Notes under the pieces: model-generated
Database searches by the model: none
Told to the model about the DNA's origin: nothing
What the model saw: the letters and a program-made list of their open reading frames with translations, nothing else
Assembly: GCF_035084215.1 (NCBI RefSeq)
Contig: NC_090346.1
Span: forward strand, 14,446,001 to 14,510,000
DNA: 64,000 nucleotides
Source: Heptranchias perlo
Lineage: Eukaryota
Direction of reading: 5' to 3'
Position numbers and translations under genes: made by a program
Part shown: piece by piece, positions 2,951-54,712 of the stretch
Layout of the letters: every line of letters starts with the position of its first letter
Numbering within the stretch: the first letter of the stretch is position 1

Positions 2951-2951
2951 A

Positions 2952-5859
2952 GGACCGCTAGGCACCGGACACGACAAAGGCAAACCAAGCCCAGTCGACC
3001 CTGCAAAGTCCTCCTCACTAACATCTGGGGACTTATGCCACAATTGGGAGAGCTGTCCCACAGACGAGTCAAGCAGCAGCCTGACATAGCCATACTCACA
3101 GAATCATACCTTTCAGCCAATGTCCCAGACTCTTGCATCACCATCCCTGGGTATGTCCTGTCCCACCGGCAGGACAGACCCACCAGAGGTGGCGGTACAG
3201 TGATATACAGTCAGGAGGGGGTGGCCCTGGGAGTCCTCAACATTGACTCCTGACCCCATGAAATCTTATGGCATCGGGTCAAACATGGACAAGGGAACCT
3301 CCTGCTCATTACCACCTACCGCCCTCCCGCGGCTGATGAATCATTCCTCCTCCATGTTGAGCATCACTTGGAGGAAGCACTGAGGGGAGCAAGGGCACAG
3401 AATGTACTCTGGGTGGGGGACTTCAATGTCCATCACCAAGAGTGACTCGGTAGCACCACTACTGACCGAGCTGGCCAAGTCCTGAAGGACATAGCTGCCA
3501 GACTGGGCCTGCGGCAGGTGGTGAGCAAACCAACACGAGGGAAAAACTTACTTGACCTCATCCTCACCAATCTATCTGTCGCAAATGCATCTGTCCATGA
3601 CAGTATTGGTAGGAGTGACCACCGCACAGTCCTCGTGGAGACGAAGTCCTGTCTTCGCACTGAGGATACCATCCAACGTGTTGTGTGGCACTACCACTGT
3701 GCTAAATGGGATAGATTCAGAACAGATCTAGCAGCTCAAAACTGGGCATCCATGAGGCGCTGTGGGCCATCAGCAGCAGCAGCAGAATTGTATTCCAGCA
3801 CAATCTGTAACCTCATGGCCCGCATATTCCTCACTCTACCATTACCAACAAGCCAGGGGATCAACCCTGGTTCAATGAGGAGTGTAGAAGAGCATGCCAG
3901 GAGTAGCACCAGGCGTACCTAAAAATGAGGTGCCAACCTGGTGAAGTTACAACTCAGGACTATATGCATGCTAAACAGCGGAAGCAACATGCAATGGACA
4001 GAGCTAAGCGATTCCACAACCAACGGATCAGATCAAAGCTCTGCAGTCCTGCTACATCCAGTCATGAATGGTGGTGGACAATTAAACAACTAACGGGAGG
4101 AGGAGGCTCTGTAAACATCCCCATCCTCAATGATGGCAGAGTCCAGCACGTGAGCGCAAAAGACAAGGCTGAAGCGTTTGCAACCATCTTCAGCCAGAAG
4201 TGCCGAGTGGATGATCCATCTTGGCCTCCTCCCGATATCCCCACCATCACAGAAGCCAGTCTTCAGCCAATTCGATTCACTCCACTTGATATCAAGAAAC
4301 GGCTGAGTGCACTGGATACAGCAAAGGCTATGGGCCCTGACAACATCCCGGCTGTAGTGCTGAAGATTTCTGCTCCAGAACTAGCCACGCCTCTAGCCAA
4401 GCTGTTCCAGTGCAGCTACAACACTGGCATCTACCCGACAATGTGGAAAATTGCCCAGGTATGTCCTGTCCACAAAAAGCAGGACAAATCCAATCCGGCC
4501 AATTACCGCCCCATCAGCCTACTCTCAATCATCAGCAAAGTGATGGAAGGTGTCGTCGACAGTGCTATCAAGCAGCACTTACTCACCAATAACCTGCTCA
4601 CCGATGCTCAGTTTGGGTTCCACCAGGACCACTCGGCTCCAGACCTCATTACAGCTTTGGTCCAAACATGGACAAAAGAGCTGAATTCCAGAGATGAGGT
4701 GAGAGTGACTGCCCTTGACATCAAGGCAGCATTTGACCGAGTGTGGCACCAAGGAGCCCTAGTAAAATTGAAGTCAATGGGAATCAGAGGGAAATCTCTA
4801 CAGTGGCTGGAGTCATACCTAGCACAAAGGAAGGTGGTAGTGGTAGTGGTTGTTGGAGGCCAATCATCTCAGCCCCAGGACATTGCTGCAGGAGTTCCTC
4901 AGGGCAGTGTCCTAGGCCCAACCATCTTCAGCTGCTTCATCAATGACCTTCCCTCCATCATAAGGTCAGAAATGGGGATGTTCGCTGATGATTGCACAGT
5001 GTTCAGTTCCATTTGCAACTCCTCAGATAATGAAGCATTCTGTGCCCGCATGCAGCAAGACCTGAACAGCAAGTAACATTCGTGCCAGATAAGTGCCAGG
5101 CAATGACCATCTCCAATAAGAGAGGGTCTAACCACCTGCCCTTGACATTCAACGGCATTACCATCACCGAATCCCCAACCATCAACATCCTGGGGGTCAC
5201 CATCAACCAGAAACTTAACTGGACCAGCCATATAAATACTGTGGCTGCAAGAGCAGGTCAGAGGCTGGGTATTCTGCAGCGAGTAACTCACCTCCTGACT
5301 CCACAAAGCCTTCCCACCATCTACAAGGCACAAGTCAGGAATGTGATGGAATACTCTCCACTTGCCTGAATGAGTGCAGCTCCAACAACACTCAAGAAGC
5401 TCGACACCATCCAAGACAAAGCAGCCTGCTTGATTGGCACCCCATCCACCACCCTAAACATTCACTCCCTTCACCACTGGCGCACAGTTGCTGCAATGTG
5501 TACCATCCACAGGATGCACTGCAGCAACTCACCAAGGCTTCTTCGACAGCACCTCCCAAACTCACGACCTCTACCACCTAGAAGGACAAGGGCAGCAGGC
5601 ACATGGGAACAACACCACCTGCATATTCCCCTCCAAGTCACACACCATCCCGACTTGGAAATATATCGCCGTTCCTTCATTGTCGCTGGGTCAAAATCCT
5701 GGAACTCCCTAACAGCACTGTGGGAGAACCTTCACCACACGGACTGCAGCAGTTAAAGAAGGCGGCTGACCACCACCTTCTCTAGGGCAATTAGGGATGG
5801 GCAGTAAATGCTGGCCTCGCCAGCGACTCCCACATCCCATGAACGAATAATAAAAAAAA
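2952..5859 (+). mobile_element. tRNA-headed LINE family (APE+RT, CR1/L2 group), copy 1, 5'-truncated and degenerate
   Basis: APE motifs ([28 protein letters not shown]) and RT motifs ([31 protein letters not shown]); A-rich tail at about 5847-5859; stops and frameshifts. Confidence 0.95.
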
Positions 5860-6457
5860 TAATCTTGCTTCAAAAACTGATCGTTCTAATTTTTCAATTC
5901 TTCCCAGTCTGTATGGCTCAGTACTACATTACGTGGTGCAGTTATCAATTGAGCCAATGGATATTTGTCAGAGTTCAACCGCAAGGCGGCAGCAAAAGAC
6001 ATATTTTTCGACTCCCTAACCAAGATAAGGCAGTAAATTGAAGGCAGACAAATCTGATGGATGTGATAATAACACGTAAAAGGCTCAAGCATCACTTGGA
6101 CCCCTTGTAATTTGCTTCTGCCTATTTATTGCCTCATTCACAAAAACAGGATATACTATTTATTTTCACTAGACACCATCCACAAACAAGTGGAGAGGGG
6201 AGTCACTCCCATATTTCTGCAAATGGAGTTGTGCAATCATCCATTGAGAGGTGTGTGAGAGTATCTGAGGGTGAGCTGCCCTTCAGCTTTCCCTCTCTAC
6301 AGAGAAGGGTTGAGCCTGTCCTCGGTGCCAACCTCCGACAGTCCTGGCAGCATTTGTAGTTTGTTCATTATACTGTTATACAAAAATTGAATATTTGTTC
6401 TGACGTATATGTTTAAAAAAATGTTTTCTTCTTTTTAAGTGAACACAACTGTTCAAA

Positions 6458-6617: not shown

Positions 6618-9600
6618 GTATGTTTTAGGTCTACACCAGTGACTGTCCTTCATGAGCTTGATGAACAAGATGTTGATAGTTTATGGTATAATTACTGCAG
6701 GTATACTGATAAACAATCTGCAGTTGATTGCCAGCAAATATACATATGTGGAAAAAAATGTATTCCTCTGTTGCTAAAGCCCACTTGGATCTGAAAGGAC
6801 TGTGATTATCATGTGACTGTTAAGTTTACTTCATGAATATAAGTTGTTAATATAGAAGATGTCCCAAGTGTTGCAGAGAAGGGGTGGCGGTGTGGAGCGG
6901 GGCGGGGGGCGAGTTGGAGGTGGAGGAGGAGAGGAATAGAATCTGAGGTACAGTCAGAGAGTTAGAGGAGGTGACCGAAAGCTTGATTGAAGAAATGGAT
7001 TTTTAAGAAGGCTTTAAAAAACAGAGGTTTAGTGAGGGAGTCCCAGAGAGTAGGGCCAATGTGACTGAAGGCTCTGCCACCAACAGTGAGGTGAAGGAGA
7101 GCCATTGTCAAAGGACTTGGGCGTGGGAGGAAACTTAAGGCTGAAGGAAGTCGCAGAGGTATGATGGGTTGAGGCTGTGGAGAGATTTCAAAACGAGGAT
7201 AAGGATTTGAAATTCAGTATATTGGGAGACGGGGCCAATGTAGTAATTTTTTCCCCCTTCAGAGTCCTCATGTCAGTCAGTCAGCAGAATGGGGATGGGA
7301 TCACCCCGCGTGGCTAGGTACAAGTCTGGGATCGAGTGTGCGCGGGGCAGAACAGGATCCAGATCTGAGGATTGCAGGTCTGGGTACAGGCTTCAGCCTC
7401 GGTATCAAACAGTTGAGAGACACAGCAGGGCTTGGGGGTGGCGCTCCAGCCCAGTCCAGACACAGTGTGTCCTGAGGGTCGTCACGAGAAGCCTGGGAGA
7501 AAGTGCTTCATCACTTTATTAAACCCTTTCCTTTTTTTTTACTTGCGTCCAACACCATGGAACATCACTAATTCTGGAAAAATAAGTTTAGAACAACTGT
7601 GAATACTGGAAATCTGAAATAAAAACAGAAATCTAGAAATCCACATCAGGTCGATCAGCAACTGCAAGAAATTGTAAGGGAAAATTATCTTGAAAAGGAG
7701 TCTCACCCTCAAAAAGAAAATATTTGTGTAGGTATTCATTTTAGGATTTTAATTTTTGTTGTTCCAAAAATGTTATTACTGTAAAATCTCCGATTTATCT
7801 CCCTGGTGTAGATATACTGAAGATCGACAACTTGTGGCGGTTCAAAACACTGACCAAACTCCAGCTGGACAGTAACGTCATTGAAAAGATTGAGGGACTG
7901 AACACGCTGACCAACCTGGTTTGGCTAGGTAAGTGTTGAAGAACTCAGTATATCACACACCTTGGCTTTGTTTTCTTTCAGCTATATTTTTGATTTTTAA
8001 AAACATTTCAGCCAGGGACATGACAGATCAGCCATGATCTAATTGAATGGTGGAACAGGCTTAAGGGGCTGAATGGCCTACTTCTGTTCGTATGAGTCAG
8101 GAGCACTAAAATCAGGCTCCACTGATATACGCACTTTCCAGCAGGAACATGTGTGTCCGTCATGTGAAGACCAAGTTCACTGTTGGTGGACAGAACACTC
8201 GCTGTTTAGATTCATGCAAAAAAGCCTCTTGGGCAAGGAGGGCACCCAATGTCATGAAAGCGAACCCCAACATGAGTTACACCTTCTGAGAGGAGGGGGG
8301 GAAAGTGAAGGAGGAAAAATTTGGAAGAAAAAATTCTCTTAAATAAAAATGTTTTGCATTTGTACAATTTATACAATGGCTTGAGAGATCTCGCACAGCA
8401 TTTTCCTTTTCTTCAACCTCCATTCAGATGGTAGCCTTTGAAAATTGAGAAGACCTTGCATTTCTATAGCGACTTTCATATCCCAAAGTGCTTTACAGCC
8501 AATTAATTACTTTTGACATGCAGTCACTGCTGTAATGTAAGCAAATGTGAATTTGTGCACAGCAAGATCCCACAAACAGCACTGAGCTAAATGACCAGAT
8601 AATCTGATTTAAGAGGTGTTGTTTGAGGGATAAGTGTTTGGCCAGGCCGTCAGGTGAACTCCCCTTCTTCCTCTTCAAATAGTGCCATGGGAATCTTATG
8701 TCCGACTGAACTGGCACACAGGGCCTCGGTTTAACATTTCATCCAAAGGACGTCTCTCTCTGACTGCAGCGCTCCCTCAGTACTGCACTGAAGCATCAGC
8801 CTGGATTATGTGCCAAGTCCTGGAGTGGGGCTTGAACATACGACCTTCTGACTTCCTTTTAGTGCGTTGAGTCAGACAGGGATTCTCCATTGGAAGAGTT
8901 GCCAAATATGTTCGTACATGAAGCTGCGGGCTGTAATTCCTGCACCCCATGCCAACATTTTGCTGTGTCAAACCTGTGGAAATTATAAGATAAATGAACT
9001 GTTAAAACACAGCAGATGCCCCATTCCCTCTTTGAGCGAACTGCCATTGGCAAATTATACCCATTCATAAGTGTAAAGGTTCCTGCTCTTGGTTGCTGGG
9101 TATTTGTTCTGTACAGGCCCTGAGTTCAAATGAGTGGTTAGGATCTGGAATGCACTGCCCGAGGGGGTGGTGGAGGCAGATTCAATCATTGCCTTCAAAA
9201 GGGAACTGGATAAGTACTTGAAAGGAAAAAATTTGCAGGGCTACGGGGAAAGAGCAGGTGAGTGGGACTAGCTGGATTGCTCTTGCATAGAGCCGGCGCA
9301 GACTCGATGGGCTGAATGGCCTCCTTCCGTGCTGTAACCATTCTATGAGTAGGGTGCTTCTTGCTTTGCAAAATCAAAGATAGAAAGCAATCCCGCTGGT
9401 GGATATCAGTAACTGTCCAAACCCTCACATGAAGATTAGCCACCTGGGCAAAGTACTGGAGAGCTGACAGTGCTCCTGGAACTATACGTTAGGAGAGGGG
9501 ATAATTGGGGAAAAAATGCTTGATTTGTTTTTTTTTCTTCTAGATTTATCCTTTAATAACATTGAGATGATCGAAGGTCTAGATGAATTGGTTAAGCTGG

Positions 9601-15600: not shown

Positions 15601-18600
15601 AGCTGGGGCAGCAGCACAATTTACCTTAGCACCCTGGGTTAGGGAGGAGAGAATCATCCAGGGTTCCTACTCCTGATCATTACCCAGAGATCCCCGTTAG
15701 AAGTGTAGATGCCAGATGGGGATGAGATCTAGTTCAGCTGTGATGCTCCTTGTGATAGAATAAGCTGCAAACATTCACTGTCTAGACTCACACACAAAGT
15801 GTGACCACTTGGTTGAGGTATTGGAAGGTGACTGGCAAACGTGCCCCAGAGAGGGAAGAAGAGTTTAATTTTTTTTTTAATAGTTGGTATTGCACCTGAT
15901 GCAATGCCAAAAAGATTCAGAACATCTATCCAATAGTGATCATAACATGATCCAGTTCAATGTAGTGTTTGAAAGGGAAAAAAGTGAATCAGCTGCTAAG
16001 ATTCTAGACTTGGGCAAGGCCGACTTCAATGGGATGAGACAGAGACTGTCCACAGTAAACTGGGCAAATCTGTTAATGGGTAAAACGACTGATGATCAGT
16101 GGGAAATGTTTAAAGAAACATTTAACGTGATACAGAATCAGTTTATACCCCTGAGGGGCAAGACTCTACTTGCCAAAAAAAACAGCCATGGACAACTAAA
16201 GAGGTAAGGGACAGTATAAGACATAAGGAAAGGGCATACAAAAAGGCAAAAAATGGCACAGATCCTGGCGAATGGGAAAGATACAAAGGGTCACAAAACA
16301 GATAGTAAGAGCTACAAAGAGAGTATAAAAAGAAACTCGCAAGGGATATCAAAACCAATACGAAGAACTTTTATAGTTATATTAGGAAAAAGAGGGTGGC
16401 CAGGAGCAGTGTTGGCCCCTTAAAAACTGAAAGTGGGGATATTGTCATTGACAATGGGGAAATGGCAGACATGTTGAACAATTACTTTGCGTCAGTATTT
16501 ACAGTAGAAAAAGAGGATAGCATGCCGGAAATCCCAAGAAAACTCATATTGAATCGGGGACAAGGACTCGATAAAATTAACATAAAGCAACAGTAATGAA
16601 GAAAATAATAGCACTAAAGAGTGACAAATCCCCAGGACCAGATGGTTTCCATCCCAGGGTTTTAAAGGAAGTAGGTGAGCACATTGCAGATGCCCTAACT
16701 ATAATCTTTCAAAGTTCTCTAGATTCAGGAACTGTCCCTCTAGATTGGAAAACTGCACGTCACTCCGCTTTTTAAGAAAGGAGAGAGAGGGAAACCGGGG
16801 AATTATAGACCAGTTAGCCTAACATCTGTTGTGGGGAAAATGCTGGAGTCTATAATTAAGGATAGGGTGACTGAACACCTCTAGAATTTTCAGTTAATCA
16901 GAGACAGCCAGCAGGGATTTGTGAAAGGTAGGTCGTGCCTGACAAACCTGATTGAATTTTTTGAAGAGGTGACTAAAGTAGTGGACAGGGGAATGTCAAT
17001 GGATGTTATTTATATGGACTTCCAGAAGGCATTTGATAAGGTCCCACATAAGAGACTGTTAGCTAAGATAGAAGCCCATGGAATCGAGGGAAAAGTATGG
17101 ACTAGGTTAGGAAGTTGGCTGAGCGAAAGGCGACAGAGAGTAGGGATAATGGGTAGGTACTCACATTGGCAGGATGTGACTAATGGAGTCCCGCAGGGAT
17201 CTGTCTTGGGGCCTCAATTATTCACAATATTTATTAACGACTTAGGTGAAGGCATAAAAAGTCTCATATCTAAGTTTGCCGATGACACAAAGATTGGTGG
17301 CATTGTAAGCAGTGTAGATGAAAACATAAAATTACAAAGCGATATTGATAGATTAGGTGAATGGGCAAAACTGTGGCAAATGGAATTCAATGTAGACAAA
17401 TGTGAGGTCATCCACTTTGGATCAAAAAAGGATAGAACAGGGTACTTTCTAAATGGTAAAAAGTTAAAAACAGTGGATGTCCAAAGGGACTGAGGGGTTC
17501 AGGTACAAAGATCATTGAAGTGTCATGAACAGTTGCAGAAAATAATCAAGAAGGCTAATGGAATGCTGGCCTTTATATCTCGAGGACTAGAGTACAAGGG
17601 GGCAGAAGTTATGCTGCAGCTATACAAAACCCTGGTTAGACCGCACCTGGAGTATTGTGAGCAGTTCTGGGCACCGCACCTTCGGAAGGACATATTGGCC
17701 TTGGTGGGAGTGCAGCGTAGGTTTACTAGAATGATACCCGGACTTCAAGGGTTAAGTTACGAGGAGAGATTACACAAATTGGGGTTGTATTCTCTCGCGT
17801 TTCAAAGCTTAAGGGGTGATCTGATCGAAGTTTATAAGATATAAAGGGGAACAGATAGTTTCTCTCTATCCACCCTATTTTCGCTGGTTGGGGATTTTAG
17901 GAGTAGGGGGCACAGTCTAAAAAATTAGAGCCAGACCTTTCAGGAGCGAGATTAGAAAACATTTCTACACACAAAGGGTTGTAGAAGTTTGGAACTCTCT
18001 TCCGCAAATGGCAATTGATACTAGCTCAATTGCTAAATTTAAATCTGAGATAGATAGCTTTTTGGCAACCAAAGGTATTAAGGGATATGGGCCAAAGGCA
18101 GGTATATGGAGTTAGCTCACAGATCGCAGAGCAGGCACAAGGGGCTGAATGGCCTACTCCTGTTCCTATGTTCCTAGTTGCAGTTATACTGCTCATCGTT
18201 TGTTGTTGAGGCTCAGAAACCACTCTGCAGAAACTCACAGATGTGCAGCATGATTGCAGTGAAATGTAGCAGTGGCAAAAAAAAATGAAACGCAATGAAT
18301 TTAGTTATTAGTGAAAGTCAGATTTCAGAAAATCAAATGCAACCTGGGATATGACATCCTTTATAATCCACACATGAGAGCGTCCTTGACTATTTACCAC
18401 ATACAAGGTTGAGTTCGTCAAGATTTGCCAGGTGATCTTTGATTACGGACTCAAAGGATTTCATGCACGTGAGAAGGAAATGGAACATTTTTTGGAATGC
18501 TTGCGAGAAGCAAATGAAGAAAACCAGCAAAAGGGAGTAAACATCATCAAGGCATTTGAGGACAAGAACAAAGAGGTAAGGAGGCAAATCATGAAGTAAA

Positions 18601-21600
18601 AACAGAAAATGCTGGAAATACACAGGTCAGTCAGCATCTGTAAGGAGAAGAGAGAGGTTATTGGTGTTTTGGGTATGCAACTGAAGCAAGTACTGATGTG
18701 TTGAAGTGTACTTTAAATGAAGGATATGGCCAGGGAACAGAGGGACCTAGAAAATGCATGCCAAGGAGAGGTGTGATACCATGTCTATCAGTTAAGTGAG
18801 ACCGGTGTTGTCCTTTATCATTTATGTAGGTCCACCTCATAAGCTTTCACAAATACACTTTCAACCAGCTATCATCAAGCATTTCATTTAAACAATTGTT
18901 TTTCTTAAACATTGTAGACTTTTTTTATTCGTTCATGGGATGTGGGCGTCGCTGGCGAGGCCGGCATTTATTGCCCATCCCTAATTGCCCTCGAGAAGGT
19001 GGTGGTGAGCCGCCGCCTTGAACCGCTGCAGTCCGTGTGGTGACGGTTCTCCCACAGTGCTGTTAGGAAGGGAGTTCCAGGATTTTGACCCAACGACGAT
19101 GAAGGAACGGCGATATATTTCCAAGTCGGGATGGTGTGTGACTTGGAGGGGAACGTGCAGATGGTGTTGTTCCCATGTGCCTGCTGCTCTTGTCCTTCTA
19201 GGTGGTAGAGGTTGCGGGTTTGGGAGGTGCTGTCAAAGAAGCCTTGGCGAGTTGCTGCAGTGCATCCTGTGGAAGGTACACACTACAGCCACGGTGCGCC
19301 GGTGGTGAAGGGAGTGAATGTTTTGGGTGGTGGATGGGGTGCCAATCAAGCGGGCTGCTTTATCTTGGATGGTGTCGAGCTTCTTGAGTGTTGTTGCAGC
19401 TGCACTCATCCAAGCAAGTGGAGAGTATTCCATCACACTCCTGACTTGTGCCTTGTAGATGGTGGAAAGGCTTTGGGGAGTCAGGAGGTGAGTCACTCGC
19501 CGCAGAATACCCAGCCTCTGACCTGCTCTCGTAGCCACAGTATTTATGTGGCTGGTCCAGTTAAGTTTCTGGTCAATGGTGACCCCCAGGATGTTGATGG
19601 TGGGGGATTTGGCGATGGTAATGCTGTTGAATGTCAAGGGGAGGTGGTTAGACTCTCTTGTTGGAGATGGTCATTGCCTGGCACTTATCTGGTACGAATG
19701 TTACTTGCCACTTATGAGCCCAAGCCTGGATGTTGTCCAGGTCTTGCTGCATGCGGGCTCGGACTGCTTCATTATTTGAGGGGTTGTGAATGGAACTGAA
19801 CATTGTGCAATCATCAGCGAACATCCCCATTTCTGACCTTATGATGGAGGGAAGGTCATTGATGAAGCAGCTGAAGATGGTTGGGCCTAGGACACTGCCC
19901 TGAGGAACTCCTGCAGCAATGTCCTGAGGCTGAGATGATTGGCCTCCAACAACCACTACCATCTTCCTTTGTGCTAGGTATGACTCTAGCCACTGGAGAG
20001 TTTTCCCCCTGATTCCCATTGACTTCAATTTTACTAGGGCTCCTTGGTGCCACACTCTGTCAAATGCTGCCTTGATGTCAAGGACAGTCACTCTCACCTC
20101 ACCTCTGGAATTCAGCTCTTTTTGTCCATGTTTGGACCAAGGCTGTAATGAGGTCTGGAGCCAAGTGGTCCTGGTGGAACCCAAACTGAGCATCGGTGAG
20201 CAGGTTATTGGTGAGTAAGTGCCGCTTGATAGCACTGTCGACGACACCTTCCATCACTTTGCTAATGATTGAGAGTAGACTGATAGGGCGGTAATTGGCC
20301 GGATTGGATTTGTCCTTTTTGTGGACAGGATATACCTGGGCAATTTTCCACATTGTCGGGTAGATGCCAGTGTTGTAGCTGTACTGGAACAGCTTGGCTA
20401 GAGGTGCAGCTAGTTCTGCAGCACATGTCTTCAGCACTACAGCTGGGATGTTGTCGGGGCCCGTAGCCTTTGCTGTATCCAGTGCACTCAGCCGTTTCTT
20501 GATATCAAGTGGAGTGAATCGAATTGGCTGAAGACTGGCTTCTGTGATGGTGGGGATATCGGGAGGAGGCCGAGATGGATCATCCACTCGGCACTTCTGG
20601 CTGAAGATGGTTGCAAACGCTTCAGCCATGTCTTTTGCACTCACATGCTGGACTCCGCCATCATTGAGGATGGGGATGTTTGCAGAGCCTCCTCCTCCCG
20701 TTAGGATGAGTGCATCTCCAACAACACTCAAGAAGCTCGACACCATCCAAGATAAAGCAGCCCGCTTGATTGGCACCCCATCCACCACCCTAAACATTCA
20801 CTCCCTTCACCACCGGCGCACTGTGGCTGCAGTGTGTACCATCCACAGGATGCACTGCAGCAACTCGCCAAGGCTTCTTCGACAGCACCTCCCAAACCCG
20901 CGACCTCTACCACCTAGAAGGACAAGAGCAGCAGGCACATGGGAACAACACCACCTGCACATTCCCCTCCAAGTCACACACCATCCCGACTTGGAAATAT
21001 ATCGCCGTTCCTTCATTGTCGCTGGGTCAAAATCCTGGAACTCCCTTCCTAACAGCACTGTGGGAGAACCGTCACCATATGGACTGCAGCGGTTCAAGAA
21101 AGCGGCTCACCACCACCTTCTCGAGGGCAATTAGGGATGGGCAATAAATGCTGGCCTCGCCAGCGACGCCCACATCCCGTGAACGAATTTTAAAAAAAAG
21201 TTGCTTAATTGTCCACCACCATTCACGACTGGATGTGGCAGGACTGCAGAGCTTTGATCTGATCCGTTGGTTGTGGAATCGCTTAGCTCTGTCCATTGCA
21301 TGTTGCTTCCGCTGTTTAGCATGCATGTAGTCCTGAGTTGTAGCTTCACCAGGTTGGCACCTCATTTTTAGGTACGCCTGGTGCTGCTCCTGGCATGCTC
21401 TTCTACACTCCTCATTGAACCAGGGTTGATCCCCTGGCTTGTTGGTAATGGTAGAGTGAGGAATATGCCGGGACATGAGGTTACAGATTGTGCTGGAATA
21501 CAATTCTGCTGCTGATGGCCCACATTGCCTCATGGATGCCCAGTTTTGAGCTGCTAGATCTGTTCTGAATCTATCCCATTTAGCACGGTGGTTGTGCCAC

Positions 21601-24600
21601 ACAACACGTTGGATGGTGTCCTCAGTGTGAAGACGGGACTTCCTTTCCACAGGGACTGTGCGGTGGTCACTCCTACCAATACTGTCATGGACAGATGCAA
21701 TTGTGACAGGTAGACTGGTGAGGACAAGGTCAAGTAAGTTTTTCCCTCGTGTTGGTTCGCTCACCACCTGCCACAGGCCCAATCTGGCAGCTATGTCCTT
21801 CAAGACTCGGCCAGTGGTGGTGCTACCGAGCCACTCTTGGTGACGGACATTGAAGTCCCCCACCCAGAGTACATTTTGTGCCCTCGCTACGCTCAGTGCT
21901 TCCTCCAAGTGGTGCTCAACATGGAGGAGGACTGATTCATCAGCTGAGGGAGGACGGTAGGTGGTAATCAGCAGGCGGTTTCCTTGCCCATGAGATTTCA
22001 TGGGGTCCAGAATCAATGTTGAGGACTCCCAGGACTACTCCCTCCTGACTGTATATCACTGTACTGCCACCTCTGGTCGGTCTGTCCTGCCGGTGGGACA
22101 GTGATGGAAGAGTCTGGGACGTTGGCTGAAAGGTATGATTCTGTGAGTATGGCTATGTCAGGCTGTTGCTTGACTAGTCTGTGGGACAGCTCTCCCAATT
22201 TCAGCACAAGTCCCCAGATGTTAGTGAGGAGGACTTTGCAGGGTCGACTGGGCTTGGTTTGCCGTTGTCGTGTCCAGTGCCCAGTGGTCCGTCCGGTTTT
22301 ATTCTTTTTATGACTTTTTGTAGTGAGATTTTACAACTGAGTGGCTTGCTCGGCCATTTCAGAATCAACCACATTGCTGTGGGTCTGGAGTCACATATAG
22401 GCCAGACCGGGTAAGGACGGCAGGTTTCCTTCCCTAAAGGACATTAGTGAACCAGATGGGTTTTTACAACAATCCGGTAGTTTCATGGCCAACATTACTG
22501 ATAGTAGTATTTTAATTCCAGATTTTTAATTAATTGAATTTAAATTCGCCAGCTGCCGTGGCGGGATTTGAATTTATGACTCTGGATTTTTAGTCCAGGC
22601 CTCTGGATTACTAGTCCAGTAACACAACCACTATGCTACCGTACCCTGTGATGGGGTTAGGGCACCAGGTGGCGTGATACTGAACCATACAAACCCTCAG
22701 CCTATGCTGAGTTTGCAGATCTCAATCAAGGCAGCAGTTGGGACACTAAATTGGCCTCCGTCCCTTTACCAGCGGGGATCACTGGATAGCAATCAAGATT
22801 GAGAACCCTGCCTGATTTTCTTTTTCCCCCCTCTACTGAGGCCGGTTGTAGCAACCACACTGCTGCCTTAGCTGAGGTCAATTAACTCAATACAGACCAG
22901 AAATCGAACCTGGAAACTTCCTGCTTGCTGTCTGTTTTTAACCCAATAAGCCACAGGGGACGATATGCTGAAATGGCTGTCTGCTGATCCTAATTTTGCT
23001 GAAGAAGATGGAGGGGAGCCCTGATACAGGGCTTTAAAATATTTAAAGGCATCGATAAGTTGAAGTAAACAAGCATTTTAATTTGGATGATGAACACAGG
23101 ATTAGAGAACACAAGTACAAAATTAACAAGTTCTGAGCAAGGTTTTAAAAAAAAAAACTTTCTCCCACAGCATGCAGTATAGACTCTCAGACAACGGTCA
23201 GATGACACCTTTACAAAGAAGCTGCATCAATATCTGTTGTTAGAGGTCTGAAAGTTAGAGATATGAACAGCCCTGCTTGATCTTTATCCAGGGCTGTAGA
23301 GGAAGGAACTTATTATCCTTAAATTAAGGAGGTCCACAGATAGTGTGGGTAGGAAGTCCAGTCTGCAGTAATCATACATGGGTCTGGATGGAGTAGAATG
23401 ATGGGCCGAATGGCTTTTTCTCAATTTGGACTTTATGTTCTGACTTTTGGTGTTTTGTCTGTTATTGAAACAACAACTTGCATTTATATAGCGCCTTTAA
23501 CGTAGTAAAACGTCGCAAGGAGCTTCACAGGCGCATAATCAGATAAAATTTGACACCGAGCCCTGTAAAGAGATACTAGGACAGGTGACCAAAAGCTTGG
23601 TCAAAGAGCAAACACCAACTTCAAAGTTTTCCATGGTTGGAGGGTTAGAAGAGGTGTTACCAGTTTAAACCTAAAACCAGAAACCTCAATAATATTTTCC
23701 TACATTACAACAGTGACTACACTTCAAAAAGTACTTAATTGGCTGTAAAGCACTTTGGGATGTCCTGAGGCCATGAAAGGCGCTATATAAATTCAAACCC
23801 TATCCTTTAATAATATACCATACCTTGTGAGACTCCTTCTGTGGTATAAATATACGATTGCTGTATTGCTGCCAATGCAATATAATATTTATAAGTGGAA
23901 CTGATTCTGTAAGACAAGTAATAGCCATGTGTTTAATGCACAATTAGCTCTCTGACTTCCATGAATATTGTATTACATCAGTAGATGAGTGTCCTGCTTT
24001 TGTACAGGCCCATTGGTGCTCAAGGGAATGATTTTTTATTTTTTTTTGTATCAACTTTTCTAATGTCCAAATGTATGGGATAAATTCTGTATTTAGCACC
24101 TTGTACATCAAGTAGCAATTTAATCTCTTAAAATATGCATAGGCTATTACTGCCTCTCACAGTCCATTTCTTAAAGTTAATAAATATTCCTGTGAAAATA
24201 CAGAACTAGATGTAGCAAAGCAGAAAGATGTTCATAATTCTTTGCTGCTGGATAAGAAATAGGAGCAGGAGTAGCCCATACGGCCCCTTGAGCCTGCTCC
24301 GCCATTCATTAAGGTCATGGCTGATCTTTGATTTCAACTCCACTTTTCCACCCTATCCCCATATCCCTTGATTCCCTTAGTGTTCAAAATCTAACGATCC
24401 TCAGTCTTGAATATGCTCAACAACTGAGCATCCACAGCCCTCTGGGGTAGAGAATTCCAAGTATTCATGGCCCTCATTCCTCCTCATCTCAGTCAAAAAT
24501 GTCCAACCCCTTATCCTGAGTCCATCTCCCCTAGTTCTAGACTCTCCAGCCAGGGGAGACATCCTTTCAGCATCTACACTGTCAAGCCCTCTTAGAATCT

Positions 24601-27600: not shown

Positions 27601-30600
27601 TCCCCTTTCCCTCCCTGGCATCACTCTATGACACATCCACTCTACACTTCCTCCTGTCTCTCCAGCAGCCTCAATCGGATGTGATACCACAGATCAATGA
27701 GAAAACAATTCAGCCCCTTTTCAACCACCATTACAAGCACACACTCCACCTCAACCCTTATTTTGTCCATTCTTCCCAGCCTCCTTTCCTGCTATCGTGG
27801 TCTACCCTGCTCTGCGTACTCCCTCCAACTAAGCCCCACCCCAGTATTGCAGCTCTGGCTCTACCCCCGATCTTAAGTGCAGCAGCCAGCTCCCCACCCA
27901 ATCCCAAGCCCAATTGTTAGCAGCTAGCTCTCTGACCAGCCCAGTCCCAAAGGCAGCAACCAGCTCCTGCATGACTTCAACTACAGCCAATCTGCTTGGT
28001 CCCACCCGAAGGTAGGTAGAGAGTAAACATTGGGCGTCCATTTAAATGCAATAGAATGGCAGCATTGTTTTACTTTTTGTATTAGACACACACTTTATGT
28101 CCTTTGAGGTATTTGCATTGTAATTTTTAAGTTTATGTAATTTACAATATTGATCTATTTAAACAACAATTTATAATACTGGAATAATTCAACTATTTAA
28201 TGTGCATATATAAAGTCTTGCATATAGCACATACTTCCTCTAAATGTCACTTACTTCCTACAACACCTCGCGCATTTCATTAATGACAACCGTACTGTTA
28301 TAAAACATCAACCCTTCACCATGAGCAATGTCATGGGAGATCCGCTAATATAAGATTTTATTTATGTCCCATGTTGATTGGTCCGTGCTAGCCATGTGAC
28401 TGGTAATTATTATTGTTCACATGATTACCAGAGATCAATCTGCCACTCCTGTTCCGGTCATCATTTTACAGCCAACCCCAACCCCCACCTCCTTGCTCTC
28501 TCTGCGCCAACAGCCCATGCCAAGGCAACAAGACAAACTAAATGCCAACCCACTGTTCCCAGAGAAAGACCAGATCATTTCTGCAGCTATCACTAGAGCC
28601 ACCTGCACTTCAAAAGTAATTAATTGGCTGCAAAGCACTTTGGGACATGATGAAAACGTTAAAAAGTGCTATATAAATGCAAGCGTTTTTTTATTACCAA
28701 ACACATGCTTTATCAGCACATAACATGTTTTCTTTGTTTCTTTTATACAGCTCTTTGTAGATAAGGATACAGTCGTCAATACGGTTAATGCATCACATGA
28801 CCTGCACCTGCTTAAGATTGACAACCAAGAAGACAAAATGGTGACTAGGGCAAATGGCTGGGTCACTGATTTGATTGAGAAGGTAAGGACAACCAGAATG
28901 GTTTAGTTCTGTGTTATTTTTATGTATGGTTCAGATGAATAAGCACACAAAATTTGAAGTTAAAGGGCCCATCAGCTTGATATTGTACTGTGGTAAAGAC
29001 TGGAAGTCAGTAACAGTTCAAAATGCAGTGATTGAACTTTAATTCCAGGTACATGAAATAGGTATAGGGTGAATCCTGTGATAGCTGAGAAATGTAAATG
29101 CATGATATGGGACTATCTCTTCCTCGAAGGTCCTAGAATTAAAGAAAGAAGAAATAAAGTACTTGCATTTATATAGCACCTTTCGTGACCTCAGGATGTC
29201 CCAAAGCGCTTTACAGCCAATGAAGTACTTTTGAAGCGTAGTCACTGTAGGAAACACGGCAGCCGGTTTGCACACAGCAAGGACCCGCAAACAGCAATGA
29301 GACAATGAGCAAGGGACTAGTAAGAAGGAGGAATTAAAGGAAATTAGTATTAGTAAAAAATAGTGCTGGAGAAATTAATGGGACTGAAAGCCGATAAATC
29401 CCCAGGGCCTGATAATCTGCATCGCAGAGTACTAAAAGAGGTAGCCATGGAAATAGTGGATGCATTAGTTGTCATTTTCCAAAATTATACAGATTATGGA
29501 ACAGTTCCTGCAGATTGGAGGGTGGTAAATGTAACCCCATTATTTAAAAAAGGAGGGAGAGAGAAAACATGGAACTACAGACCGGTTAGCCTAACATCAG
29601 TAGTGGGGAAAATGCTCGAGTCTATTATGAAGGATGTGATAACAGGACATTTAGAAGATATCAACGGGATTAGACAAAGTCAACATAGATTTATGAAAGG
29701 GAAATCATGTTTGACAAACCTACTGGAGTTTTTTGAGGATGTAACTGGTAGAATAGATAAGGGGGAACCAGTGGATGTGGTTTATTTGGATTTTCAGAAG
29801 GCCTTTGATAAAGTCCCACATAAGAGGTTATTGTGCAAAATTAAAGCACATGGGATTGGGGGTAATATACTGGCATGGATTGAAAATTGGTTAACAGACA
29901 GGAAACAGAGAGTAGGAATAAATGGGTCTTTTTCGGGGTGGCAGGCTGTGACTAGTGGGGTACCGCAGGGATCAGTGCTTGGGCCCCAGCTATTCACAAT
30001 ATATATCAATGATTTGGATGAGGGAACCAAATGTAATATTTCCAAGTTTGCTGACGACACAAAACTAGGTGAGATCGTGGGTTGTGAGGAGGATGCAAAG
30101 AGGCTTCAAGGTGATTTAGACAAGTTGAGTGAGTGGGCGGGCAAATACATGGCAGATGCAGTATAATGTGGATAAATCTGAAGTTATCCACTTCAGAAGG
30201 AAAAACAGAAAGGCAGAGTATTATTTAAATGGTGATAGATTGGGGAATGTTGATGTACAAAGGGACCTGGGTGTCCTTGTACACCAGTCACTGAAAGCAA
30301 ATATGCAGGTGCAGCAAGCAGTTAGGAAGGCAAATGGTATGTTGGCCTTCATTGCAAGAGAATTTGAGTACAGGAGTAAGGATGTCTTACTGCAGTTATA
30401 CAGGGCCTTGATGGGACCAGACCTGGAGTATTGTGTGCAGTTTTGGTCTCCTTACCTAAGAAAGGATATACTTGCCGTAGAGGGAGTGCAGCGAAGGTTC
30501 ACCAGACTGATTCCTGGGATGGCAGGACTGTCGTATGAGGAGAGATTGGGTCGACTCGGCCTGTATTCACTCGAGTTTAGAAGAATGAGAGGGGATCTCA

Positions 30601-32107
30601 TTGTAACATATAAAATTCTGACAGGGCTAGACAGGCTGGATGCAGGAAGGATGTTTCCCCTGGCTGGGGGGGTCCAGAATGTGAGGGGTCACAGTCTCAG
30701 GATATGGAGTAGGACATTTAGGACTGAGATGAGGAGAAATTTCTTCACTCAGATGGTAGTGAACCTGTGGAATTCTCTACCTCAGAAGGCTGTGGAGGCC
30801 AAGTCACTGAATATATTTAAGATGGAGCTAGATAGATTTCTAGACACAAAAGGCATCAAGGGGTATGGGGTGGGAGCGGGAATATGGTATTGAGATAGAG
30901 GGTCAGCCATGATCATATTGAATGGCGGAGCAGGCTCAAAGGGCCGAATGGCCTACTCCTGCTTCTATTTTCTATGTTCTATGTTCCTATAATGACAAGA
31001 TAATCTGTTTTGGTGATGTTGAATGAGACATTAATATTTGCCAGGACACTGGGAAGAACTGCTCTGGCTCTTTTTCAGATAGTGCCATGGGATCTTTTAC
31101 TTCCACCTGAGAGGGTAGACAGGGCCATGATTTAATGGCTCATCCAAAAGATGGCACCTCCAACAGTGCAGCACTCCCTCAGTACTGCATTGGAATGTTA
31201 GTTTAGATTATGTACTCAAGTCTCTGGAGTGGGACTTGAACGCGCAACCTTCTGACTTAGAGGCGAGAATGCTGCCACTGAGCCACAGCTGGTCAGTGTA
31301 GTGTTAGCAGATTCCATTATAGGAGCATTACAGTTGGTTCCAGAACCCCTTGGTGGGGGGAGGGAATCAGGCAGAGACTCTTGCTCCCGATCATGGTCAT
31401 TGAGACCTGTTAGAAGAGCGCTCTTGTGGGAATCTTGTGTGAGGACAAGATCGGTCTTGGTTGTGACACCTTCCATAGCTGAATAGCCTGCCAACATGGG
31501 CAAGGTATTGTTGGGGGGGGGGGGGGGGGGGGACGCGTGCAACTAGCACCTGTGGAACTGGACCTCAGTGAAAGCCAGCATATTCAGGGAAAGAAATAAA
31601 GAAAATTGGGGGTTGGGGGAAGAAGGAAACAAAATTAGATACAGGACCTAATGGCAACTCAAATGTTGGGCAAACTGTTGGGGGAGGAATGGATTTATTA
31701 TCCTACACAAATAAAACAGAAAAAACCCAGGGGCAATAAAGGGAAAAAGTACCCTGGAAAATTCCTCTCCGACCCCCCCCTCCCCACCCCCCTACCCCCC
31801 TCCCAGGCGATCGAAACCAGTCCAGGAGATCACATGGACCAAACCGGTCTTTAAGCACTTTCTCAGTTAGAGGCGGACACATGGGGTTGGAGAAGGGAGG
31901 GTTATACAGGAAAGAATATATCTTGAAAAATAAGGGTGGAGGATAAATGTTTTAATTTGCAACGCAGTAACCTGCTTGTTTATATTTTTTTTGTAGCTGC
32001 ACACAGACGAAATAAACCGTAACCGTAAGCGAGTTTTGGAAATTAACATCTACATCCACCACTGGCAGGATGAGCTGGATTTCCTTGAACTCCAAGACAT
32101 GAATTGA
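6458..32107 (+). CDS. DRC3: Dynein regulatory complex subunit 3 (LRRC48), complete 12-exon CDS, 1569 nt, 522 aa
   Basis: join(6458-6617,7812-7928,9544-9710,9855-10001,12631-12750,14886-14998,18401-18575,25160-25291,25870-25940,27208-27331,28751-28882,31997-32107). Phases are consistent with no internal stops. N-terminal LRRs then coiled coil, colinear with recalled human DRC3. Confidence 0.95.
6857..7240 (-). mobile_element. L2-like LINE 3' remnant
   Basis: Reverse-complement similarity to the L2-type 3' end at 56450-56815. Confidence 0.6.
7812..7928 (+). CDS. DRC3: DRC3 coding exon 2 (LRR)
   Basis: [38 protein letters not shown]; AG / GTAAG boundaries. Confidence 0.95.
8455..8860 (-). mobile_element. 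Deu-domain SINE copy
   Basis: Reverse complement of the 44285-44724 family. Confidence 0.8.
9544..9710 (+). CDS. DRC3: DRC3 coding exon 3 (LRR)
   Basis: [55 protein letters not shown]; TAG / GTAAGT. Confidence 0.95.
9855..10001 (+). CDS. DRC3: DRC3 coding exon 4 (LRR cap)
   Basis: [49 protein letters not shown]; CAG / GTAAGT. Confidence 0.95.
12004..12462 (+). mobile_element. Deu-domain SINE with inverted middle segment
   Basis: Head +, about 12160-12362 -, tail +. Confidence 0.8.
12631..12750 (+). CDS. DRC3: DRC3 coding exon 5
   Basis: [40 protein letters not shown] (40 aa, same length as the recalled human segment); AAG / GTAGG. Confidence 0.88.
14886..14998 (+). CDS. DRC3: DRC3 coding exon 6, followed by a U12 AT-AC intron
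   Basis: [37 protein letters not shown](I); donor ATATCCCTTT at 14999. Confidence 0.9.
15918..18175 (+). mobile_element. CR1 (HER1-like) LINE, 5'-truncated, inside a U12 intron
   Basis: [45 protein letters not shown] motifs; tail ggggctgaatggcctactcctgttcctatgttcc. Confidence 0.93.
18401..18575 (+). CDS. DRC3: DRC3 coding exon 7
   Basis: [58 protein letters not shown]; branch TCCTTGAC 18383-18390, AC acceptor 18399-18400, donor GTAAGG. Confidence 0.92.
18920..22646 (-). mobile_element. tRNA-headed LINE family, copy 2, full length with Pol III head, interrupted by a nested fragment
   Basis: Same APE-RT. T tail at 18920. The 5' end reads GGGTACGGTAGCATAGTGG (A box 22638-22628), B-box-like AATTCAAATCC 22574-22564. 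Confidence 0.95.
20705..21199 (+). mobile_element. 3' fragment of the same LINE family inserted antisense into copy 2
   Basis: Interrupts the host sequence cccgttag|ttgtttaatt seen intact at 52515-52532; carries the ORF end, 3' UTR and A tail. Confidence 0.93.
24255..24700 (-). mobile_element. CR1 (HER1-like) 3' fragment
   Basis: ORF 24401-24694 [21 protein letters not shown] plus CR1 3' UTR. Confidence 0.88.
24765..24945 (+). repeat. Pyrimidine-rich low-complexity tract
   Basis: Almost entirely T/C. Confidence 0.8.
25160..25291 (+). CDS. DRC3: DRC3 coding exon 8
   Basis: [44 protein letters not shown]; CAG / GTAAGA. Confidence 0.92.
25870..25940 (+). CDS. DRC3: DRC3 coding exon 9, followed by a U12 AT-AC intron
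   Basis: [23 protein letters not shown](L); donor ATATCCTTTG at 25941. Confidence 0.93.
26730..27100 (+). mobile_element. Second, older tRNA-SINE-like family (representative copy)
   Basis: Recurring motif cagggttcctactcctgat...cctgctggaaagtg...tgtctaggctcaca. Degenerate copies near 10475-10815(-), 11390-11700, 12865-13140, 15175-15405(-), 15530-15865, 22655-22960, 31310-31620, 33270-33500, 35545-35810(-), 38885-39210(-). Confidence 0.65.
27208..27331 (+). CDS. DRC3: DRC3 coding exon 10
   Basis: [41 protein letters not shown]; branch CCTTAAC 27192-27198, AC 27206-27207, donor GTAAGA. Confidence 0.93.
28751..28882 (+). CDS. DRC3: DRC3 coding exon 11
   Basis: [44 protein letters not shown]; CAG / GTAAGG. 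Confidence 0.95.
29158..31300 (-). mobile_element. Deu-domain SINE split by the CR1 insertion (29158-29310 and 30990-31300)
   Basis: The halves join in register (acagcaatgagacaatga / ataatgacaagataatctg). Confidence 0.8.
29312..30989 (+). mobile_element. CR1 (HER1-like) LINE, 5'-truncated, inserted in a Deu-SINE
   Basis: RT ORFs 29363-30166 and 30129-30893; tail ttctatgttctatgttcctat; SINE halves on both sides. Confidence 0.95.
31997..32107 (+). CDS. DRC3: DRC3 last coding exon
   Basis: [36 protein letters not shown]-stop (TGA 32105-32107). Confidence 0.95.
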   Translation: MHTDEINRNRKRVLEINIYIHHWQDELDFLELQDMN

Positions 32108-50723: not shown

Positions 50724-53700
50724 TTTTTTTTTTTTTTTTTTATTCGTTCACGGGATGTGGGCGTCGCTGGCGAGGCCAGCATTTATTGCCCATCCCTAAT
50801 TGCCCTCGAGAAGGTGGTGGTGAGCCGCCTTCTTGAACCGCTGCAGTCCGTGTGGTGACGGTTCTCCCACAGTGCTGTTAGGAAGGGAGTTCCAGGATTT
50901 TGACCCAGCGACAATGAAGGAACGGCAATATATTTCCAAGTCGGGATGGTGTGTGACTTGGAGGGGAACGTGCAGGTGGTGTTGTTCCCATGTGCCTGCT
51001 GCTCTTGTCCTTCTAGGTGGTAGAGGTCGCGGGTTTGGGAGGTGCTGTCGAAGAAGCCTTGGCGAGTTGCTGCAGTGCATCCTGTGGATGGTACACACTG
51101 CAGCCACAGTGCGCCGGTGGTGAAGGGAGTGAATGTTTAGGGTGATGGATGGGGTGCCAATCAAGCGGGCTGCTTTATCTTGGATGGTGTCGAGCTTCTT
51201 GAGTGTTGTTGCAGCTGCACTCATCCAGGCAAGTGGAGAGTATTCCATCACACTCCTGACTTGTGCCTTGTAGATGGTGGAAAGGCTTTGGGGAGTCAGG
51301 AGGTGAGTCACTCGCCGCAGAACACCCAGCCTCTGACCTGCTCTTGTAGCCACAGTATTTATATGGCTGGTCCAGTTCAGTTTCTGGTCAATGGTGACCC
51401 CCAGGATGTTGATGGTGGGGGATTCGGCGATGGTAATGCCGTTGAATGTCAAGGGGAGGTGGTTAGACTTTCTCTTGTTGGAGATGGTCATTGCCTGGCA
51501 CTTATCTGACGCGAATGTTACTTGCCACTTATGAGCCCAAGCCTGGATGTTGTCCAGGTCTTGCTGCATGCGGGCTCGGACTGCTTCATTATCTGAGGGG
51601 TTGCGAATGGAACTGAACACTGTGCAGTCATCAGCGAACATCCCCATTTCTGACCTTATGATGGAGGGAAGGTCATTGATGAAGCAGCTGAAGATGGTTG
51701 GGCCTAGGACACTGCCCTGAGGAACTCCTGCAGCAATGCCCTGGGGCTGAGATGATTGGCCTCCAACAACCACTACCATCTTCCTTTGTGCTAGGTATGA
51801 CTCCAGCCACTGGAGAGTTTTCCCCCTGATTCCCATGGACTTAATTTTACTAGGGCTCCTTGGTGCCACACTCGGTCAAATGCTGCCTTGATGTCAAGGG
51901 CAGTCACTCTCACCTCACCTCTGGAATTCAGCTCTTTTGTCCATGTTTGGACCAAGGCTGTAATGAGGTCTGGAGCCGAGTGGTCCTGGCGGAACCCAAA
52001 CTGAGCATCGGTGAGCAGGTTATTGGTGAGTAAGTGCCGCTTGATAGCACTGTCGACGACACCTTCCATCACTTTGCTGATGATTGAGAGTAGACTGATG
52101 GGGCGGTAATTGGCCGGATTGGATTTGTCCTGCTTTTTGTGGACAGGACATACCTGGGCAATTTTCCACATTGTCGGGTGGATGCCAGTGTTGTAGCTGT
52201 ACTGGAACAGCTTGGCTAGAGGCGCAGCTAGTTCTGGAGCACAAGTCTTCAGCACTACAGCTGGGATGTTGTCGGGGCCCATAGTCTTTGCTGTATCCAG
52301 TGCACTCAGCCGTTTCTTGATATCACGTGGAGTGAATCGAATTGGCCGAAGACTGGCTTCCGTGATGGTGGGGATATCGGGAGGAGGCTGAGATGGATCA
52401 TCCACTCGGCACTTCTGGCTGAAGATGGTTGCAAACGCTTCAGCCTTGTCTTTTGCACTCACGTGCTGGACTCCGCCATCATTGAGAATGGGGATGTTTG
52501 CAGAGCCTCCTCCTCCCGTTAGTTGTTTAATTGTCCACCACCATTCACGACTGGATGTGGCAGGACTGCAGCGCTTTGATCTGATCCGTTGGTTGTGGAA
52601 TCGCTTAGCTCTGTCTATAGCATGTTGCTTCCGCTGTTTAGCATGCATGTAGTCCTGAGTTGTAGCTTCACCAGGTTGGTACCTCATTTTTAGGTACGCC
52701 TGGTGCTGCTCCTGGCATGCTCTTCTACACTCCTCATTGAACCAGGGTTGATCCCCTGGCTTGTTGGTAATGGTAGAGTGAGGAATATGCCGGGCCATGA
52801 GGTTACAGATTGTGGTGGAATACAATTCTGCTGCTGCTGATGGCCCACAGCGCCTCATGGATGCCCAATTTTGAGCTGCTAGATCCGTTCTGAATCTATC
52901 CCATTTAGCACGGTCGTAGTGCCACACAACACGTTGGATGGTGTCCTCAGTGCGAAGACGGGACTTCATCTCCACGAGGACTGTGCGGTGGTCACTCTTA
53001 CCAATAATGTCATGGACAGATGCATTTGCGACAGGGAGATTGGTGAGGACAAGGTCAAGTAAGTTTTTCCCTCGTGTTGGTTCGCTCACCACCTGCCGCA
53101 GGCCCAGTTTCGCAGCTATGTCCTTCAGGACTCGGCCAGCTCGGTCAGTAGTGGTGCTACCGAGCCACTCTTGGTGATGGACATTGAAGTCCCCCACCCA
53201 GAGTACATTTTGTGCCCTTGCTACCCTCAGTGCTTCCTCCAAGTGGTGCTCAACATGGAGGAGGACTGATTCATCAGCTGAGGGAGGACGGTAGGTGGTA
53301 ATCAGCAGGAGGTTTCCTTGCCCATGTTTGACCTGATGCCATGAGATTTCATGGGGTCCAGAGTCAATGTTGAGGACTCCCAGGGCCACTCCCTCCTGAC
53401 TGTATATCACTGTACCGCCACCTCTGGTGGGAGGACCCTAGGCAAGACAGAGGGTCAGAGGGATCTTGGTGTGCAAGTTCACAGATCCCTGAAGGCGGCG
53501 GAACAGGTAGATAAGGTGGTAAAGAAGGCATATGGGATACTTGCCTTTATTAGCCGAGGCATAGAATATAAGAGCAAGGAGGTTATGATGGAGCTGTATA
53601 AAACACTGGTTAGGCCACAGCTGGAGTACTGTGTGCAGTTCTGGTCGCCACACTACAGGAAGGATGTGATCGCTTTGGAGAGGGTGCAGAGGAGATTCAC

Positions 53701-54712
53701 CAGGATGTTACCAGGGCTGGAGCGCTTCAGCTATGAAGAGAGACTGGGAAGATTGGGTTTGTTTTCCTTGGAGCAGAGGAGGCTGAGGGGGGACATGATT
53801 GAGGTGTACAAAATTATGAGGGGCACAGATAGGATGGATACTAAGGAGCTTTTTCCCTTCGTTGAGGGTACTATAACAAGGGGACATAGATTCAAAGTAA
53901 AAGGCGGGAGGTTTAGAGGGGATTTGAGAAAGAACTTTTTCACCCAGAGGGTGGTTGGAGTCTGGAACTCACTGCCTGAAAGGGTTGTGGAGGCAGGAAC
54001 CCTCACAACATTCAAGAAGCATTTGGATGAGCACTTGAAATGCCATAGCATACAAGGCTACGGACCAAATGCTGGAATATGGGATTAGAGTAGACAGGGC
54101 TGATGGCCGGCGCGGACACGATGGGCCGAAGGGCCTCTATCCGTGCTGTATAACTCTATGACTCTATGACTCTATGACATACCCAGGGATGGTGATGGAA
54201 GAGTCTGGGACGTTGGCTGAAAGATATGATTCTGTAAGTATGGCTATGTCAGGCTGTTGCTTGACTGGTCTGTGGGACAGCTCTCCCAATTTTGGCACAA
54301 GTCCCCAGATGTTAGTAAGGAGGAACTTGCAGGGTCGACTGGGCTTGGTGTTTTGCCGTTGTCGTGTCCGGTGCCTAGTGGTCCGATGCCGGGTGGTCCG
54401 TCCGGTTTTATTCTTATTATGACTTTTCGTAGCGAGATTTTACAACTGAGTGGCTTGCTAGGCCATTTCAGAGGGCAATTAAGAATCAACCACATTGCTG
54501 TGGGTCTGGAGTCACATATAGGCCAGACCGGGTAAGGACGGCAGGTTTCCTTCCCTAAAGGACATTAGTGAACCAGATGGGTTTTTACGACAATCCGGTA
54601 GTTTCATGGCCATCATCACTGATACTAGTATTTTAATTCCAGATTTTTTATTTAATTAATTGAATTTAATTCATTAATTGAATTTAAATTCGCCAGCTGC
54701 TGGGGCGGGATT
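50724..54712 (-). mobile_element. tRNA-headed LINE family, copy 3, near full length (ends inside the B box), young
   Basis: T18 tail 50724-50741. ORFs 51791-53410 and 50796-51869 are separated by one frameshift near 51840. The 5' leader matches the copy 2 leader. Confidence 0.95.
53432..54178 (+). mobile_element. Young CR1 3' fragment nested in LINE copy 3
   Basis: Open ORF to 54088; tail (actctatg)3; interrupts the host APE domain. Confidence 0.95.

Follow-up and report, generated by a model that had tools for sequence, protein, structure and literature searches.

A 64,000-nucleotide (nt) stretch of the Heptranchias perlo genome (contig NC_090346.1, positions 14,446,001 to 14,510,000 of the forward strand; the window) carries on its minus strand a long interspersed nuclear element (LINE) that opens with a tRNA-derived head. 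Head, non-coding leader, one open reading frame (ORF) encoding APE and reverse transcriptase (RT) domains, and an A tail insert as one 3.3-kb unit. Judged from its sequence, the family is elasmobranch Zenon of the CR1 group, and the focal copy is a decayed, dead member of this abundant shark-and-ray LINE. The overall explanation that we consider probable is that Zenon acquired a tRNA-type promoter for RNA polymerase III (Pol III).

An earlier note on this DNA had claimed that the head is part of the element and not a neighbouring short interspersed nuclear element (SINE), and this is borne out genome-wide. Exact sequence patterns were counted in the 3.25-Gb genome. The exact start of the head occurs 3,768 times, and the young junction between leader and ORF 3,673 times. 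Among the first 30 head starts, 25 enter the ORF, three are head-plus-tail SINEs with three different junctions and two were unresolved; the join is thus not limited to the two copies originally described. The 20-mer just before the APE domain has 8,422 matches, and of the first 30 loci 13 begin at nt 1-7 and three at nt 17-32, while truncation at nt 113-383 affects the other 14; none extends past the head. The best 29 other matches to a head-plus-ORF-start query, a set biased by that query, all begin at the same GGGTAC position or no more than about 15 nt from it, and have unrelated flanks. The 5′ ends stack at the GGGTAC/A-box position, which is the check that the earlier note had asked for. 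Moreover, no pair of upstream flanks shares sequence abutting the head, either among 50 or among 30 flanks (the sets are partly the same copies), which argues that there is no hidden ORF1, in agreement with the original proposal. The tail is reached by 37 of 40 fetched head-bearing loci, mostly at 3.2-3.3 kb, and both flanks rejoin as a continuous repeat (an empty site) in 18 of these 37 copies, where five shuffled pairings gave 0-1. In another species the sequence departs from the element at this same first base in 384 contigs; these are assembled contigs, so transcript start and strand are not readable from them.

These counts bear on the idea that a SINE came to lie beside a 5′-truncated LINE by chance, or that one-off template-switch chimeras like U6-L1 were formed. 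Head-plus-tail SINEs do exist in the genome, and one long copy in the window (copy 3) is without an A box. However, identical junctions occur by the thousand, empty sites are found, and the same junction is shared by five other species and, at 3 of 30 loci, by an older subfamily. Chance juxtaposition is thereby refuted, and the explanation as a whole is left with almost no credibility.

The family itself has been catalogued. Stuart et al. 2026 (PMC13343379) list ORF1-less, poly(A)-tailed Zenon elements in five elasmobranchs, the coelacanth and hagfish. All seven elasmobranch Zenon consensus entries of that study (CarCar, RhiTyp, ScyCan and HypSab Zenon-1; SquAca Zenon-1 to -3) open with the Zenon head and leader. 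Over the first 400 nt of the entries, compared by eye, the head, leader and ORF junction match in long identical stretches, and both boxes, A and B, are conserved in the sharks as well as in a ray. The supplement contains a 13-nt leader motif five times, and its entry lengths are 2,886-3,314 characters. The likeness extends to a length of ~3.3 kb, the lack of ORF1, the single APE-RT ORF and the poly(A) tail. The hagfish and coelacanth entries differ, having no such head in their first 400 nt and T runs there instead. A poly(A) tail is stated in PMC13343379 to be unique to Zenon within the CR1 group; A-rich tails are present in our 37 full-length copies, which also share the Zenon organisation of one APE and RT ORF without ORF1. 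The absence of ORF1 had been put forward as unusual. This did not hold, as section 15 of the same paper gives all Zenon and Rex1 elements and many L2s as being without it. In a quick RT tree, which included no named Zenon reference, the Zenon RT was placed together with a Branchiostoma protein and unnamed homologs (28 rows, support 97), away from the other LINEs of the genome; this is only consistent with the assignment. The closest outside proteins are 42-44% identical and mostly unnamed. Distant relatives (~21-43% identical) had no A/B-box pair upstream of their ORFs, no ARAGORN tRNA at 60 of 60 loci and no match to the head profile in 150 external loci, on contigs that may lack 5′ ends, and no relative was found in a first metagenome scan or a viral scan. 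The words tRNA, polymerase III and promoter have 0 matches in the main text of PMC13343379, and likewise in its preprint; therefore the head and the loss of T runs appear to be unremarked in that text. Searches of the literature outside subscription journals, Repbase and Dfam, where an entry could already note the head, yielded no account of an autonomous LINE with a tRNA head, nor of Zenon being adapted to Pol III. Of the architecture for which the earlier note knew no description, only the nature of the head appears, in these searches, to be undescribed.

The tRNA origin of the head is weakly visible in the focal copy, with an Rfam tRNA match at 22638-22582 of 22.3 bits, under the gathering score of 29. 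ARAGORN called no tRNA within the window and called a head tRNA in five distinct sister copies, which it labels tRNA-Thr(agt) or tRNA-Ile(aat) (loci L003, L004, L013, L023 and L147). In shark annotations, Zenon heads may consequently be miscalled as tRNA-Thr genes or as separate SINEs, and could inflate tRNA gene counts. An anticodon-arm-like segment (22620-22582) is tandemly duplicated in young heads and single in several old SINE heads. When candidate source tRNAs were sought, almost every tRNA gene fetched was Cys or Thr, with a poor alignment to the head; the head may bear a likeness to tRNA-Gln. At loci L341-L370 (mostly G000:C23), nearly identical tRNA-Cys genes and some tRNA-Thr genes form long arrays, with a frequent spacing of ~2.35 kb. 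With its tRNA-related head and A and B boxes the element resembles SINE2 elements. These are short (<700 bp) and non-autonomous, which is true only of its deletion derivatives and not of a 3.3-kb element with a selected ORF. No ribozyme family was detected around the head (Rfam, 22000-23200, up to E=5), and with it no hepatitis delta virus-like ribozyme of the R2/RTE type. The leader was at first guessed to be SacSINE1's Deu domain, an idea that was rejected. Two Deu motifs, taken from the AmnSINE1 row printed in the Kojima 2020 supplement rather than from the SacSINE1 consensus itself, match 7 and 3 times within a different SINE family of the window and never in the leader. A stricter degenerate Deu pattern matched 0 of 370 loci and was uninformative. 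Compared by eye only, the leader does not resemble the printed alignment of the UCON3 body.

Vertebrate Pol III transcripts end at four or more Ts. The majority sense strand of Zenon has no run of at least four Ts and 21 A runs, and across the 37 copies 12 such T runs were counted versus 161 expected from composition (observed/expected, O/E, 0.07). Within the ORF there are five runs of at least three Ts versus 12.5 after synonymous-codon shuffling (P = 0.0002), and TTT accounts for 3 of 19 Phe codons (0.16). No such depletion affects A, C or G runs. T4 O/E values of 1.24-2.12 were obtained for two other LINE families of this genome. In 78 related ORFs the lowest T3 O/E is 0.77 (0.29 in Zenon) and the lowest TTT share 0.41 (0.16 in Zenon), and none of the 64 related ORFs longer than 2 kb is free of T4. 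Eight fragments of the older subfamily are also depleted in T runs (O/E 0.22). This loss from the sense strand is strong, if indirect, support for Pol III transcription of Zenon, which we infer to be likely.

The same strand asymmetry could have arisen if the head were a captured 5′ untranslated region (UTR), with full-length RNA made by RNA polymerase II (Pol II) starting at the head or at promoters in the flanks, and Ts selected against for other reasons, such as avoidance of U-rich cleavage or decay signals. Non-LTR (long terminal repeat) elements are described as Pol II-transcribed in PMC10886601, a capped RNA would ease translation, and the majority sequence has AATAAA near its 3′ end. 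However, two further AATAAA lie within the first 365 nt, other LINEs of this genome have not lost their T runs, and the A and B boxes are retained from sharks to the ray. Moreover, the 5′ ends stack at the first base of the tRNA and the ORF has no AUG usable by cap-dependent scanning. We consider Pol II transcription of this kind unlikely.

Zenon was proposed to be of the autonomous type, and selection on its ORF agrees. A single 968-codon frame spans nt 332-3235 of the majority sequence; it encodes Exo_endo_phos (APE) and RVT_1 (RT) domains and is intact in 2 of the 37 full-length copies. Among variants that many copies share outside CpG, this frame has 27 synonymous and 12 non-synonymous ones; the corresponding ratios for the other two frames are 7:32 and 10:29. 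Propagating lineages therefore needed the protein, and the ORF evolved under purifying selection. Translation may begin less conventionally, the first in-frame ATG being at residue 245. In most copies an in-frame TAA blocks the ATG at nt 305, and upstream ATGs are blocked or out of frame. From this TAA to the APE domain, the indels that copies share come in multiples of three, and three of four shared substitutions are synonymous in the main frame. The stretch therefore seems to be translated with no AUG in frame; alternatively, translation might shift into the main frame from an overlapping frame upstream.

Copies with the leader are not all LINEs. The motif at the end of the leader has 12,876 matches, the first 30 of which comprise 18 LINEs, two young SINEs and 10 old SINEs. 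An older form of the motif has 1,008 matches; three LINEs were found among 30 loci, the rest being mostly SINEs, and therefore the older subfamily had the same join between head and ORF. The internally deleted SINEs retain the first 320-350 nt and the last 60-135 nt. At 21 extracted head-tail junctions the spacers are 4-66 nt, and old SINEs often retain a few LINE bases past the leader. One young SINE junction has 66 exact matches, nearly all dispersed, and head-tail joints were also seen in reads of other species. The short head-plus-tail derivatives that had been suggested as a check were thus found, both at 3 of the 30 head starts and, young and old, among the leader-end loci. Repeated internal deletion from the LINE fits best with SINEs that carry so many different junctions. 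At one site (L054, L055; G000:C27:8646711-8647709), a young head-plus-tail SINE lies within an 830-bp tandem unit and is repeated along with it.

The abundance of these short forms also bears on whether the protein acts on the RNA that encodes it. Pol III might make only the template RNA, with the protein supplied in trans from separate Pol II read-through or spliced transcripts. An uncapped, AUG-less RNA would then need no translation, no IRES-like structure (internal ribosome entry site) was found in the leader, and upstream ATGs do exist, though blocked or out of frame. However, purifying selection across propagating subfamilies (27:12) is a prediction of action in cis, and supply in trans should let short forms dominate, yet there are 3,673 young LINE junctions versus 66 for the one young SINE junction counted. 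A separate source of protein is therefore quite improbable.

Several points weigh against a Pol III-transcribed Zenon that inserts as a unit. For the majority ORF, the test on runs of at least four Ts alone is weak under codon shuffling (0 versus 2.0, P = 0.088). Of the 78 controls, L260 (z = -3.7, past the -2.95 of the target) and L204 (z = -2.65) also lie far under the values of their own codon shuffles. Control L272 (P0047), with 55% GC and only one T4 run, is nearest to the target pattern, on a contig without the 5′ end, and most controls are T-richer than the target. A passage in PMC10886601 ascribes lengths of 100-700 bp to Pol III processivity, and at 3.3 kb Zenon is far longer. The leader folds no better than its shuffles (z -1.5 and 0.06), and therefore no IRES-like structure is shown. 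Among the 18 best empty-site matches, five fall in the repeated flank of the copy itself. Most copies have no target-site duplication (26 of 37), and one of at least 4 nt is seen in 4 of 37 versus a shuffle mean of 0.8.

We propose that elasmobranch Zenon took up a type-2 Pol III promoter of tRNA origin, which became the 5′ end of the element. TFIIIC would bind the A and B boxes, and because these are internal each full-length insertion would bring its own promoter. Pol III would then traverse the T-free body and stop at a T run in the flanking DNA. The RNA is presumably uncapped and, more tentatively, may be translated from a non-AUG start shortly past the in-frame TAA. Target-primed reverse transcription is established for CR1-group LINEs, and the protein would copy its own RNA in this way. 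Internal deletions, visible in the structure of the derivatives, would repeatedly have given tRNA-headed SINEs. We lean slightly towards the full version of this proposal, in which shark-and-ray Zenon is autonomous, is expressed through a Pol III-made 3.3-kb RNA and cap- and AUG-free translation, has been so since before sharks and rays split, and still gives birth to SINEs by single deletions. The textbook division, as stated in PMC10886601, assigns LINE transcription to Pol II and SINE transcription to Pol III, whose processivity limits how long SINEs can be. A vertebrate LINE of thousands of copies that is seemingly adapted to Pol III would, if true, break this split and offer a natural case of long Pol III transcription combined with cap- and AUG-independent translation. 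Through it, SINEs could also arise in a single step, since one RNA already carries both head and tail, and with many different deletion junctions visible such births are countable in a genome.

The window holds three long Zenon copies and fragments (Table 1). Read on the minus strand, the focal copy runs from GGGTACGG through the A box, a B-box-like stretch, leader and APE-RT coding sequence to an A7 tail ending at 18920. The A box reported by the earlier note at 22638-22628 was confirmed in the sequence. The reported B-box-like stretch at 22574-22564 is present, in a form mutated relative to the family. Similarly, the single APE-RT ORF is true of the family, and in the focal copy it is broken by 12 indels and the inverted same-family insert of 496 nt. 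Copy 3 had been cited as independent support for the head. A closer inspection revealed that it supports the junction of leader and ORF and not the tRNA head, since its match starts at profile position 79, inside the B box, and the A box is absent.

Table 1. Coordinates of the Zenon copies in the window and of the parts of the focal copy.
Feature	Position	Strand	Remarks
Full-length but broken Zenon LINE copy (focal copy)	18920..22646	minus	3,231 nt excluding insert; 97.2% identity to 37-copy majority sequence
tRNA-derived head with duplicated anticodon-arm-like segment	22556..22646	minus	5′ end of the element; inner boundary approximate
A box TAGCATAGTGG	22628..22638	minus	each base retained in at least 98 of ~105 copies
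B box	22564..22575	minus	GAGTTCAAATCC in the family; two G>A changes in the focal copy
Non-coding leader	22331..22555	minus	initially AT-rich, without T4 run, terminates at in-frame TAA; kept by derived SINEs
Single APE-RT frame	18981..22330	minus	968 codons when intact, first in-frame ATG at residue 245; disrupted by indels and insert
Inserted 5′-truncated Zenon copy	20704..21199	plus	496 nt, own A tail; opposite orientation to host copy
3′ UTR with AATAAA and A7 tail	18920..18980	minus	common to derived SINEs
Copy 3	50724..54712	minus	truncated within B box; interrupted by another LINE at ~53432-54175
Copy 1	2952..5862	plus	5′ truncation just upstream of APE domain

Other repeats surround these copies. 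Two 3′ fragments (35817-36060 and 43744-44016) belong to an older Zenon subfamily and are 78-85% identical to young copies. The SINE family with Deu motifs is older and abundant, ~430-470 bp long and 70-85% alike between copies (8450-8853, 44292-44724, 55111-55577, 57474-57836, 59729-60148, 61646-62107 and fragments); it differs from the Zenon leader and probably represents the SacSINE1 type. A second RT-coding LINE family, which served as a control for T runs, is present as fragments at 16589-18173, 29357-30972 and 49186-50201, and several Zenon copies elsewhere appear to be inserted in repeats of this type. A third LINE family occurs at 46115-47138, 53432-54175 and 35087-35279, one 5′-truncated copy sitting inverted within Zenon copy 3. 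The end of the window (62748-64000) is GC-rich, with a tandem repeat at 63399-64000 and a 209-codon stop-free frame on the minus strand. Among the external loci, dozens of contigs from bacterial metagenome-assembled genomes (L271-L340; e.g. Thiodiazotropha and Sedimenticola bins) carry animal-type LINE ORFs, which are most likely host contamination.

Zenon as described here shares features with several known systems. TRNA-derived SINEs (SINE2; SacSINE1, other Deu-SINEs and shark HE1) have the same order of A/B-box head, body and LINE-type tail, but encode no protein. R2 is also a single-ORF LINE, and one that is not made by Pol II and whose uncapped RNA is translated without a canonical start; it differs in being co-transcribed with ribosomal DNA by Pol I and released by a ribozyme. 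SacSINE1 further differs in its Deu body and in a tail common with L2-2_CM (PMC5499810). RTE-1_DAn and related elements are said to be LINEs containing tRNA-like sequence (Kojima 2018, PMC5786205). They may be a precedent, although they belong to the RTE clade and the passage gives neither the position nor the role of that sequence. The TRIMp3 elements Cassandra, Helenus and Ajax are also retroelements with a Pol III promoter derived from a small RNA, whereas they are non-autonomous LTR elements of 0.3-1.3 kb with no coding capacity (PMC10886601). Among Zenon elements, bivalve CR1-Zenon is reported to mobilise SINEs through shared tails (PMC11481361). Closest in its derivation is Persaeus, from lepidopteran Zenon, which according to Wang et al. 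2019 (PMC6740152) is non-autonomous and was born by internal deletion, possibly more than once, with both ends kept. Persaeus is described there as having no tRNA similarity and no Pol III promoter, whereas the deletion products in the shark are, in structure, tRNA-headed SINEs.

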